Below, one piece after another: positions 68-59,107 of a DNA stretch of 64,000 nucleotides. This DNA is from Escherichia coli (GTDB lineage: Bacteria > Pseudomonadota > Gammaproteobacteria > Enterobacterales > Enterobacteriaceae). The stretch's first letter is position 1; every line of letters begins with the position of its first letter. The notes beneath the pieces were generated by a model. It was given only the letters and a program-made list of their open reading frames with translations. It was not told the origin of the DNA and ran no database searches. The DNA lies in assembly GCF_003018255.1 (NCBI RefSeq), contig NZ_CP027440.1. One strand, given 5' to 3'. Made by a program: the position numbers and the translations under genes.

Positions 68-1450
68 ATGGAAAAGAAACTGGGACTGAGCGCACTCACC
101 GCGCTGGTATTAAGCTCAATGCTGGGCGCGGGTGTTTTCAGTCTGCCGCAAAATATGGCGGCAGTTGCCAGCCCGGCAGCACTGCTCATCGGCTGGGGCA
201 TTACTGGCGCTGGCATTTTATTGCTGGCCTTTGCCATGCTGATCCTCACGCGCATTCGTCCCGAACTTGACGGCGGTATCTTTACCTATGCCCGCGAAGG
301 GTTTGGCGAGCTAATCGGCTTTTGTTCCGCATGGGGATACTGGCTGTGCGCAGTCATCGCCAACGTCTCCTATCTGGTGATCGTTTTTTCCGCGTTAAGC
401 TTTTTTACGGACACGCCGGAATTGCGCCTGTTTGGCGATGGTAATACATGGCAATCGATCCTCGGTGCATCGGCTTTATTGTGGATTGTTCACTTTTTGA
501 TCCTGCGCGGAGTGCAAACCGCTGCCAGCATTAACCTGGTGGCGACACTGGCAAAATTGTTGCCGCTGGGTCTGTTTGTTGTGCTGGCGATGATGATGTT
601 CAAACTGGATACCTTCAAGCTCGACTTCACCGGACTTGCACTTGGCGTACCCGTTTGGGAACAGGTGAAAAACACCATGCTGATCACCCTGTGGGTTTTC
701 ATTGGTGTGGAAGGTGCCGTGGTTGTTTCTGCGCGTGCGCGTAATAAACGTGATGTTGGCAAAGCGACACTGCTGGCGGTTCTCTCCGCTCTGGGCGTTT
801 ACTTGCTGGTAACGCTGCTTTCGCTGGGCGTGGTGGCACGTCCTGAACTGGCTGAAATTCGTAACCCGTCAATGGCCGGACTGATGGTGGAAATGATGGG
901 ACCGTGGGGCGAAATCATCATCGCTGCCGGTTTGATCGTTTCCGTTTGCGGTGCGTACTTAAGCTGGACCATCATGGCGGCAGAAGTTCCGTTCCTGGCA
1001 GCCACTCATAAAGCATTCCCGCGCATTTTTGCGCGCCAGAACGCACAAGCTGCGCCATCCGCTTCACTGTGGCTGACCAATATCTGCGTGCAAATTTGTC
1101 TGGTACTCATCTGGCTGACCGGTTCCGATTACAACACATTGCTGACCATCGCCTCAGAAATGATTCTGGTGCCCTATTTCCTGGTCGGCGCGTTCTTGCT
1201 GAAAATCGCAACCCGTCCACTGCATAAAGCGGTAGGTGTCGGTGCCTGCATTTATGGCTTATGGTTATTGTACGCCTCTGGTCCAATGCACTTGCTGTTA
1301 TCCGTTGTTCTGTATGCACCGGGGCTGCTGGTTTTCCTGTACGCGCGTAAAACGCATACCCATGATAATGTACTGAATCGTCAGGAAATGGTGCTGATTG
1401 GCATGCTGTTAATTGCCTCAGTTCCGGCGACCTGGATGCTGGTGGGATAA
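68..1450 (+). CDS. ydgI: APC-family amino acid transporter (arginine:ornithine antiporter-like), 460 aa from ATG at 68 (ORF track opens at 41)
   Basis: ORF 41..1450; multi-TM hydrophobic protein recognised as YdgI; position upstream of folM. Confidence 0.85.
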   Translation: MEKKLGLSALTALVLSSMLGAGVFSLPQNMAAVASPAALLIGWGITGAGILLLAFAMLILTRIRPELDGGIFTYAREGFGELIGFCSAWGYWLCAVIANVSYLVIVFSALSFFTDTPELRLFGDGNTWQSILGASALLWIVHFLILRGVQTAASINLVATLAKLLPLGLFVVLAMMMFKLDTFKLDFTGLALGVPVWEQVKNTMLITLWVFIGVEGAVVVSARARNKRDVGKATLLAVLSALGVYLLVTLLSLGVVARPELAEIRNPSMAGLMVEMMGPWGEIIIAAGLIVSVCGAYLSWTIMAAEVPFLAATHKAFPRIFARQNAQAAPSASLWLTNICVQICLVLIWLTGSDYNTLLTIASEMILVPYFLVGAFLLKIATRPLHKAVGVGACIYGLWLLYASGPMHLLLSVVLYAPGLLVFLYARKTHTHDNVLNRQEMVLIGMLLIASVPATWMLVG

Positions 1451-26103: not shown

Positions 26104-26684
26104 ATGACTGACTACCTGTTACTGTTTGTCGGAACTGTACTGGTCAATAACTTTGTACTGGTCAAGTTTCTCGGTCTCTGTCCGTTTATGGGGGTTTCCA
26201 AAAAGCTGGAAACCGCGATGGGCATGGGGCTGGCAACAACGTTTGTGATGACGCTGGCGTCTATTTGCGCCTGGCTTATCGATACGTGGATTTTGATCCC
26301 ACTTAATCTGATTTACCTGCGCACCCTGGCATTTATTCTGGTGATTGCTGTGGTCGTGCAGTTCACCGAGATGGTGGTGCGCAAAACCAGCCCGGTGCTT
26401 TACCGTCTGCTGGGGATTTTTTTGCCGCTTATCACCACCAACTGTGCAGTGCTCGGCGTGGCGTTGCTGAATATCAATCTCGGGCACAATTTCTTGCAGT
26501 CGGCGCTGTACGGTTTTTCCGCCGCTGTCGGTTTTTCGCTGGTGATGGTTCTCTTCGCAGCTATCCGCGAACGCCTTGCTGTGGCTGATGTCCCGGCACC
26601 TTTTCGCGGTAATGCCATTGCGTTAATTACCGCAGGTCTTATGTCTCTGGCCTTTATGGGCTTTAGTGGTTTGGTGAAGTTGTA

Positions 26685-26685
<1 letters not shown>
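26104..26685 (+). CDS. rsxA: Rsx/Rnf complex subunit A
   Basis: 193 aa polytopic membrane protein; first gene of the rsxABCDGE cluster. Confidence 0.92.
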
Positions 26686-29382
<2,697 letters not shown>

Positions 29383-56358: not shown

Positions 56359-57528
56359 TTAGCTGTTGGCAACGCAAACTGCCTCAGGTTGTTTTCTGGC
56401 TGACATAAACACCAGCAATAATGCCAGTCCCGCGACAATCGCCCCCATCACCGGCACAAAGCTGTATCCCAGCCCAGCGGAAATTACCGCACCACCAGCA
56501 GCAGCTCCCAGCGCATTTCCAAGATTAAAGGCACCAATATTGACTGATGAAGACAGACCAGGCGCTTCACTGGCGACACGCATCACGCGCATCTGTAACG
56601 GCGGTACGACCGCAAAGGTTGCAGCTCCCCACACCACCATGCTAATAGCTGCGCCGAACTCATTGCGGGCCAGGAACGGGATTGCTAGCATAATCACCAT
56701 CAGCAGCAACAAAAAGCCTTTCAACGTGCCGTTAACTGAACGATCTGCCAGTTTGCCGCCGAGATAGTTACCGATAGAGAATCCGACACCAATCAGCACC
56801 AGCATTGCCGTAACGAACACCGGCGTTGCGTGGGTAATACTTTGCAGTACCGGAGAGATATAGGTGTAGAGGGTAAACATTGCACCAGCTCCCAGTACCG
56901 TCGTCAGCAATGCAGACAGCACCTGCGGACGCATTAATACCGCCAGCTCTTTTTTCACTTCAGGTCGCGCCCCTGCGCCACCTTTAGGTAATGAGAAGAA
57001 CAGACTTACCATTGAAATCACGCCCAGCCCCGCCGTTGCCAGAAATGACATCCGCCAGCCGATGGTTTCGCCCAACCAGGTCGCTGCCGGAACGCCACCG
57101 ATATTTGCCAGGGTTAACCCCATAAACATAGTGGCAACTGCGCTGGCCTGTTTATGTTTTGGCACCACGCTTGCGGCCACAACTGAACCCAAACCAAAAA
57201 ATGCTCCGTGATTCAGGCTGGTCAAAATGCGTGAAAGCATCAGCGTCATATAATCCGGCGCGATGGCGGAAAGTACGTTGCCGAGCGTGAAAATCGCCAT
57301 CAGGAAAATCAACGCACTGCGGCGAGCACGATGAGAAAGTAGAAGCGTCATCAGCGGCGCGCCAACCATTACGCCAACTGCATAGGCACTGATTAACATT
57401 CCGGCAGCGGGAATCGAGACATCCACACCGCGCGCAATGACGGGCAATAAGCCCATTGGCGAGAACTCCGTTGTCCCGATACCAAACGCGCCAATCGCCA
57501 GCGCCAGCAACGGATAGTTAATTTTCAT
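56359..57528 (-). CDS. ydhP: MFS transporter (12-TM)
   Basis: 389 aa. Confidence 0.85.
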   Translation of the reverse strand: MKINYPLLALAIGAFGIGTTEFSPMGLLPVIARGVDVSIPAAGMLISAYAVGVMVGAPLMTLLLSHRARRSALIFLMAIFTLGNVLSAIAPDYMTLMLSRILTSLNHGAFFGLGSVVAASVVPKHKQASAVATMFMGLTLANIGGVPAATWLGETIGWRMSFLATAGLGVISMVSLFFSLPKGGAGARPEVKKELAVLMRPQVLSALLTTVLGAGAMFTLYTYISPVLQSITHATPVFVTAMLVLIGVGFSIGNYLGGKLADRSVNGTLKGFLLLLMVIMLAIPFLARNEFGAAISMVVWGAATFAVVPPLQMRVMRVASEAPGLSSSVNIGAFNLGNALGAAAGGAVISAGLGYSFVPVMGAIVAGLALLLVFMSARKQPEAVCVANS

Positions 57529-57663: not shown

Positions 57664-57685
57664 CGAGGGAGAACGCGCTCCCTCG
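57664..57685 (-). terminator. candidate hairpin downstream of ynhF
   Basis: CGAGGGAG-AACGCG-CTCCCTCG 8-bp stem; downstream U-rich but not a clean U-run. Confidence 0.35.
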
Positions 57686-57693
57686 AGAGGAAA

Positions 57694-57783
57694 TCAGTGC
57701 AGCGCGGCAGTCAAACCCACGGCCACGATCAAACCGAGGACGATAATCGTTGTTACCAGTGAAAATTTAAGGTCGGTGCTCAT
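57694..57783 (-). CDS. ynhF: 29-aa single-TM small protein
   Basis: Minus-strand ORF MSTDLKFSLVTTIIVLGLIVAVGLTAALH with AAGGAG SD 8 nt upstream; below the ORF-track size cutoff. Confidence 0.7.
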   Translation of the reverse strand: MSTDLKFSLVTTIIVLGLIVAVGLTAALH

Positions 57784-58021
57784 CAAGTTTTCTCCTTTTT
57801 TATTACCACACAAAAAGTGATATTACGCATTTTTACACACTGTGATGAAAAAATCTCCCGTCATTTATAATGATAAGTGTTTTTACCACTTCCCCTTTTC
57901 GTCAAGATCGGCCAAAATTCCACGCTTACACTATTTGCGTACTGGCCATTGACCCCTTCCTGACGCTCCGTGTCGTTTTTCCGGCGTACCGCAACACTTT
58001 TGTTGTGCGTAAGGTGTGTAA

Positions 58022-58037
58022 AGGCAAACGTTTAGCT
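58022..58037. promoter_or_regulatory. PurR operator O1 (PUR box) in the purR leader
   Basis: AGGCAAACGTTTAGCT contains the PUR box core GCAAACGTTT, about 45 bp upstream of purR ATG. Confidence 0.6.
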
Positions 58038-58081
58038 TGCGATTTTGCAGGAGCTGAAGTTAGGGTCTGGAGTGAAATGGA

Positions 58082-59107
58082 ATGGCAACAATAAAAGATG
58101 TAGCGAAACGAGCAAACGTTTCCACTACAACTGTGTCACACGTGATCAACAAAACACGTTTCGTCGCTGAAGAAACGCGCAACGCCGTGTGGGCAGCGAT
58201 TAAAGAATTACACTACTCCCCTAGCGCGGTGGCGCGTAGCCTGAAGGTTAACCACACCAAGTCTATCGGTTTGCTGGCGACCAGCAGCGAAGCGGCCTAT
58301 TTTGCCGAGATCATTGAAGCGGTTGAAAAAAATTGCTTCCAGAAAGGTTACACCCTGATTCTGGGCAATGCGTGGAACAATCTTGAGAAACAGCGGGCTT
58401 ATCTGTCGATGATGGCGCAAAAACGCGTCGATGGTCTGCTGGTGATGTGTTCTGAGTACCCAGAGCCGTTGCTGGCGATGCTGGAAGAGTATCGCCATAT
58501 CCCAATGGTGGTGATGGACTGGGGTGAAGCAAAAGCTGACTTCACCGATGCGGTCATTGATAACGCATTCGAAGGCGGCTACATGGCCGGGCGTTATCTG
58601 ATTGAACGCGGTCATCGCGAAATCGGCGTTATCCCTGGCCCGCTGGAACGTAACACCGGCGCAGGCCGCCTTGCCGGTTTTATGAAGGCGATGGAAGAAG
58701 CGATGATCAAAGTGCCGGAAAGCTGGATTGTACAGGGTGACTTTGAACCTGAATCCGGTTATCGCGCCATGCAGCAAATACTGTCGCAACCGCATCGCCC
58801 TACTGCCGTCTTCTGTGGTGGCGATATCATGGCAATGGGCGCACTTTGTGCTGCTGATGAAATGGGTCTGCGCGTGCCGCAGGATGTTTCGCTGATCGGT
58901 TATGATAACGTGCGCAACGCCCGCTATTTTACGCCAGCGCTGACCACGATCCATCAGCCAAAAGATTCGCTGGGCGAAACGGCGTTCAACATGCTGTTGG
59001 ATCGTATCGTCAATAAACGCGAAGAACCGCAGTCCATTGAAGTGCATCCGCGCTTGATTGAACGCCGCTCCGTGGCTGACGGCCCGTTCCGCGACTATCG
59101 TCGTTAA
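58082..59107 (+). CDS. purR: purine repressor PurR (LacI family)
   Basis: 341 aa; recognised PurR ([33 protein letters not shown]...). Confidence 0.96.
58109..58124. promoter_or_regulatory. PurR operator O2 (PUR box) inside purR codons 10-14
   Basis: CGAGCAAACGTTTCCA contains GCAAACGTTTCC. Confidence 0.6.

Follow-up and report, generated by a model that had tools for sequence, protein, structure and literature searches.

A fourth, unexpected single-helix subunit of about 3 kDa was found by Thesseling et al. in 2019 in the cryo-EM map of Escherichia coli cytochrome bd-I, identified in the purified oxidase as YnhF by mass spectrometry, and given the proposed name CydY (PMC6853902). The ynhF gene was placed between ydhP and purR, outside cydABX, and earlier work, as it is cited in that paper, described YnhF as a protein made at low oxygen that retains its N-formyl-Met (PMC6853902). 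The YnhF helix, also called CydH, was modelled as blocking the spacious O2 entry route to heme b595 that is used in the Geobacillus enzyme (PMC6853902). Since CydH occludes this route, the published structures have O2 in E. coli bd-I travelling to heme d by another path, a narrow hydrophobic channel that begins in CydB. In CydA, the cleft that accommodates CydH lies between TM1 and TM9 (reviewed in PMC8951039), on the side opposite CydX in these structures. Bd-II and the mycobacterial enzymes have no CydH-like subunit, and CydH homologues coincide with the long-Q-loop (L-subfamily) proteobacterial oxidases (PMC8951039). Another review agreed on CydH in bd-I (PMC12648545), and structures from 2026 again resolved a CydA-CydB-CydX-CydH heterotetramer, with cydH outside the cyd operon (PMC13189123). 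For laboratory strains of E. coli, cryo-EM and mass spectrometry have demonstrated both that CydH is made and that it binds CydA (PMC6853902, PMC8951039, PMC13189123).

The most similar subunits are CydX, AppX and CydS, which, like CydH, are very small one-helix proteins with hydrophobic contacts to CydA (or AppC). However, CydX (37 aa) is produced from the cydABX operon, lies near TM1, 5 and 6 of CydA on the opposite side and is needed for assembly and stability, whereas the gene for CydH is located outside this operon, and CydH itself occupies the site between TM1 and TM9 and is a proposed gate for O2 access. Our literature search revealed no report of a cydH deletion phenotype, nor of oxidase kinetics without CydH; thus, the channel-gating role is still one inferred from structure.

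The cydH gene of the window

Here we analyzed a 64,000-nt stretch of E. coli DNA (contig NZ_CP027440.1 of assembly GCF_003018255.1; hereafter the window), in which an initial annotation, made from the sequence alone, had described a 29-codon gene for a small single-TM protein, named it ynhF and located it between ydhP and purR. We found this description to be accurate. The ORF occupies positions 57694-57783 of the minus strand and consists of an ATG (57783-57781), 28 further sense codons and a TGA stop (57696-57694); its translation is MSTDLKFSLVTTIIVLGLIVAVGLTAALH, exactly the peptide that had been given. The AAGGAG Shine-Dalgarno (SD) sequence that had been noted 8 nt 5' of the ATG was found on the same strand at 57792-57797, and the best 19-residue Kyte-Doolittle mean of the peptide, 2.53, agreed with a single transmembrane helix. 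Both neighbors were also confirmed: ydhP (56359-57528, minus strand) lies 165 nt downstream, and purR (58082-59107, plus strand) is divergent from cydH and begins 298 nt upstream.

Comparison with databases left little doubt about the identity of the gene. First, all 29 residues (100%) were identical to chain H of PDB entry 6RKO (6rko_H), which is named 'Uncharacterized protein YnhF / Cytochrome bd-I ubiquinol oxidase CydH' and whose sequence occurs in eight PDB entries. Second, the peptide matched the NCBIfam equivalog NF033411 (small_mem_YnhF, cytochrome bd-I oxidase subunit CydH) with 50.2 bits against a cut-off of 30 and over its full length, residues 1-29 aligning to profile positions 1-29. 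This was the sole NCBIfam match at E <= 10 and no CydX family was among the matches, which, together with purR and ydhP as neighbors, places the protein outside CydX/AppX; in Pfam, no family was matched by the peptide. Finally, RefSeq labels the locus between ydhP and purR as cydH, among the matches listed. It is therefore almost certain that the 29-codon ORF is cydH (ynhF/cydY), the gene for the fourth subunit of cytochrome bd-I, a role that the initial annotation had left out even though the name ynhF was right. The gene is the same as that of CydH/CydY/YnhF of E. coli bd-I (6RKO chain H; NF033411; UniProt A5A618), with identical 29 aa, the same position between ydhP and purR and a single TM helix. 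The protein is no different from CydH of the solved structures, although these were solved with other strains, given that identity between the window and its closest complete E. coli genome is only 99.6%.

Among complete E. coli genomes, the 801-bp neighborhood of cydH was found in 5,425 of 5,426 and the ORF itself in about 5,424 of 5,426; in 5,388 of them the ORF together with its SD region was at least 99% identical. A plasmid of one E. coli genome bore an additional copy of the region, and the region was absent from one or two complete genomes.

A mechanical ORF list places the start of the cydH frame further upstream, at a TTG (57813), for a product of 39 aa. This extension contains the SD sequence, and the solved chain begins with MSTDL; thus, ATG 57783, and not TTG 57813, is the true start. 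An ORF of this size is by itself not unusual, as the window contains 547 ATG ORFs of 20-50 codons. However, a strong SD core 5-12 nt upstream was present in just three of these 547, and cydH alone among the three has TM-grade hydrophobicity. The remaining two, at 26663-26746 (minus strand, 27 aa) and 286-357 (minus strand, 23 aa), are not hydrophobic. The gene had been described as missed by the ORF track. It was indeed hidden there, and the reason was the 60-aa display cutoff only; there is no annotation gap, since RefSeq has cydH. The more general remark that size-filtered ORF tables overlook small membrane proteins is valid, if not new.

A GC-rich hairpin (GAGGGAGC...CUCCCUCG; 57664-57685, minus strand) begins 9 nt past the cydH stop and has no U-tract. 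The 71-nt region containing it had a predicted fold of -17.6 kcal/mol (z = -1.8), and its arms were moderately conserved whereas the surrounding downstream sequence was not. Our terminator scan made no call at this hairpin, nor at any other relevant place on the cydH strand. The hairpin could act as a weak terminator or as a stem that stabilizes the mRNA.

Conservation and synteny of cydH

We searched 1.84 billion cluster representatives exhaustively with phmmer, taking as query a natural translation of 30 aa in which the Leu codon before the ATG is included, and recovered 28 clusters at E <= 1e-3, all of which share a core of roughly 29 aa. Many of the database homologues were longer (P0002, P0004, P0007, P0015, P0023, P0027 and others), with read-through or frameshifted tails or miscalled upstream starts, which shows that gene callers treat the 29-codon cydH inconsistently.

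An alignment-based locus scan with one genome per species yielded 80 cydH loci in Enterobacteriaceae and Erwiniaceae, in genera including Escherichia, Citrobacter, Salmonella, Klebsiella, Raoultella, Enterobacter, Leclercia, Lelliottia, Kosakonia, Phytobacter, Pluralibacter, Atlantibacter, Erwinia, Pantoea and Enterobacillus. As the scan pattern, M[SD][TAY][DN]LKFSL, fixed CydH residues 1-9, this distribution is a lower bound and the invariance of the N-terminus is due to the way in which loci were selected. All 80 loci had an ATG start followed by exactly 29 codons and a stop (59 TGA, 20 TAA and 1 TAG), and in nearly all of them an SD core (AAGGAG, AGGAG or GGGGG) was located at an equal distance from the gene. 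These loci comprised 77 distinct nucleotide versions, in all of which the coding frame was open, whereas the +1 frame was open in none. Over codons 10-29, which lie outside the scan pattern, the summed entropies of the three codon positions were 13.1, 7.3 and 28.3, respectively; variation was therefore mostly at third positions. The pN/pS ratio was 0.19 against E. coli, where pS was nearly saturated at 0.71, and 0.30 when all pairs were taken. Conservation across Enterobacteriaceae, which had been suggested as a check on the ORF, was thus clearly present. Taken together, cydH is a translated gene under purifying selection whose reading frame, length and location have been maintained in both Enterobacteriaceae and Erwiniaceae. 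In a permutation test, the CydH helix showed no significant tendency to have one conserved face (the observed moment was reached in 4,514 of 20,000 permutations), which is not surprising for a helix that sits in a cleft and is flanked by lipid.

With regard to gene order, in the window as well as in all 80 loci cydH was found beside purR, which was divergent and upstream in every case, in keeping with the published position of the gene outside the cyd operon. The distance between the two start codons was nearly fixed in Enterobacteriaceae (about 286-303 nt, usually about 298) and ranged from 278 to 399 nt in Erwiniaceae and related loci. On the other side, ydhP was downstream of cydH in 66 of the 80 loci and was absent from Salmonella arizonae, a Pluralibacter MAG and all Erwinia/Pantoea-type loci (L030, L004, L071-L081). 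Thus, the conserved partner of cydH is purR and not ydhP.

The purR-cydH intergenic region and the STnc550 family

The intergenic region was as conserved as the cydH coding sequence, with sequences averaging about 0.75-0.77 identity to the window, compared with 0.58-0.60 downstream of the stop codon, and its conservation came in discrete blocks. One of these blocks, TGTGyAAAAATG (57839-57828), was nearly invariant across 34 Enterobacteriaceae sequences and contains a candidate extended -10 element, TGTGTAAAAAT (TGnAAAAAT; 57829-57839, minus strand). Judged by this conservation, it is plausible that the block is the extended -10 of cydH, in which case transcription would start here, about 50 nt 5' of the ATG. 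A strict sigma-70 scan of the relevant region predicted no promoter for the cydH strand.

Another block, at 58022-58037, is the PurR/GalR operator O1. The GalR ChIP site reported for 'ynhF/purR' (PMC5110547) equals O1 of the window except for a substitution at 58035, where the window reads AGGCAAACGTTTAGC; the base here is C in MG1655 (PMC5110547) and in every one of the 5,424 complete E. coli genomes that contain the region. This substitution sits at a nearly invariant operator position; private SNPs are expected here, because the window is only 99.6% identical (over 20 kb) to the nearest complete genome. Besides the GalR peaks in E. coli, MarA/RamA peaks have been reported in the purR-cydH intergenic region in Salmonella. 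We also observed a hairpin of 5-8 bp, at about 57985-58006, that recurs in most genera at the same place (columns 78-98 of alignment A2) with differing stems (CAACA/TGTTG, GCAAC/GTTGC, GCAAT/ATTGC and CAATG/CATTG) and differs little in stability between the two strands. This hairpin may be part of the purR 5' UTR or a protein-binding palindrome.

FNR occupancy of the locus was reported by Myers et al. (2013), whose FNR ChIP-seq and ChIP-chip data both showed a peak at 'ynhF/purR' (PMC3688515, Tables S5 and S9). The motif score of this site was weak (PWM ln p -6.77 vs -13.45 for cydA), and no target was assigned since ynhF and purR were 'indistinguishable' (PMC3688515). In the window, the best sequence resembling an FNR box, TTGATGAGCACCGA (57773-57786, minus strand), has two mismatches to TTGATnnnnATCAA and overlaps the cydH start codon, making it a candidate site; the centres of the FNR peaks map to about 57756 and 57789 and therefore bracket it. 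This mapping relies on what we take to be the position of purR in U00096.2, and the U00096.3 offset was checked against the GalR site. A second FNR-like box with three mismatches was observed at 57864-57877, within a conserved block. Based on the reported occupancy, FNR bound at the locus may contribute to the low-oxygen induction that has been described for cydH. Regarding ArcA, the supplements of a genome-wide study mentioned neither ynhF nor purR, and our search of main texts found no paper naming cydH/ynhF together with ArcA or FNR.

The region also matched an RNA family. Rfam RF02081 ('STnc550', Enterobacterial sRNA) covered 57691-58081 of the minus strand with 388 bits against a gathering score of 48 and over the complete model (1-388 of 388). 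Model positions of about 299-388 correspond to the cydH coding sequence and are all unpaired, and the remainder is the whole 298-nt purR-cydH intergenic region, with the 5' end abutting the purR start codon. Elsewhere in the window, just upstream of sodB, a sub-threshold match to the SodB 5' UTR thermometer (RF02775; 55557-55661, plus strand; 31 bits vs gathering score 98) was observed. The STnc550 entry covers the same DNA as the cydH region but is labelled as a non-coding gene, whereas here its 3' quarter is a translated coding sequence under selection and the rest is the control region between purR and cydH. We consider it the most economical reading that STnc550 represents the cydH mRNA region plus purR control DNA, and not a structured sRNA. 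Our literature search found no paper mentioning STnc550.

The extent of this match, over the whole region from cydH to the purR start codon, might point to a transcript with two functions, in which cydH transcription starts far upstream and produces a long leader antisense to the purR 5' UTR and O1, so that cydH and purR interfere with each other. The divergent arrangement in 80 of 80 genomes, its near-fixed spacing even where ydhP is missing, and an intergenic region no less conserved than the coding sequence would fit such a transcript, as would an RNase G study in which 5' processing of ynhF mRNA was located less than 200 nt from the transcription start (PMC4191395). However, the purR promoter, the operators and the reported binding of GalR, Fur, FNR and MarA/RamA suffice to account for the intergenic conservation, and the best-conserved promoter-like element of cydH lies only about 50 nt upstream of the ATG. 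Moreover, no strand-specific structure signal was found: with RNAalifold on 34 diverse sequences, the energies were -58.3 kcal/mol on the minus strand and -53.9 kcal/mol on the plus strand, the changes were almost all one-sided, and the 298-nt region upstream of cydH showed neither a strand preference nor compensatory (two-sided) covariation. A dual-function transcript therefore appears unlikely. We hold it to be similarly improbable that the fixed pairing of cydH and purR reflects a shared control region in which cydH transcription, possibly as a long STnc550 RNA running antisense to O1 and the purR leader, and purR autoregulation influence each other. If this were true, shared control would link a respiratory-oxidase subunit to the level of the purine repressor at low oxygen, perhaps via the reported FNR occupancy.

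Proposed role of CydH and implications

Our preferred reading is that the 29-residue inner-membrane CydH, expressed from a free-standing gene, would serve in this strain as the fourth subunit of the quinol oxidase CydA-CydB-CydX-CydH, where, according to the published structures, its helix in the TM1/TM9 cleft of CydA would occlude the wide O2 route to heme b595. Alternatively, bd-I might be only a secondary site of CydH, whose main activity would then be that of a small, general stress protein of the membrane, with RNase E among its possible partners. The gene does lie outside the cydABX operon, the protein was first described as a stress-associated small protein, and full-length CydH was recovered with RNase E in a two-hybrid screen (PMC13232886). 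However, the authors of that screen ascribed the signal to generic contacts between TM helices (PMC13232886), and independent groups have found CydH to be stoichiometric at a specific site of CydA, in the eight PDB entries mentioned above. We regard this alternative as very unlikely.

Even less probable, to the point of being scarcely tenable, is the view that the locus encodes the non-coding sRNA STnc550 and that the 29-codon ORF is incidental. The full-length, high-scoring match to RF02081 speaks for it, but the ORF is a part of the model without base pairs, variation within the ORF is specific to codon position with a low pN/pS, and CydH has been detected as a protein, both by mass spectrometry and in solved structures. 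In addition, folding energies were similar on both strands without two-sided covariation, the clearest hairpin of the model (positions 47-62) is the palindromic operator O1, and the 5' end at the purR start codon looks like an intergenic boundary and not like a mapped RNA end. STnc550 as a purely non-coding RNA is effectively refuted by coding selection and the observed protein. Readings as a chance ORF or an antisense ORF were ruled out because of the match to the PDB structure and the frame-specific selection.

The assignment of this ORF to cydH is thus correct but ordinary: the gene, its protein, the structure and the proposed role were published between 2008 and 2019, and the NCBI pipeline annotates the gene routinely. 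Its value is methodological. The combination of a strong SD sequence, a TM-grade stretch and conservation of the reading frame across genera isolated cydH from 547 ORFs of similar size in the window. An Rfam 'sRNA' family can actually consist of the mRNA of a small protein and the control region of the adjacent gene. Finally, a 60-aa cutoff on ORFs conceals real, functionally important membrane microproteins, such as this subunit of a respiratory oxidase.
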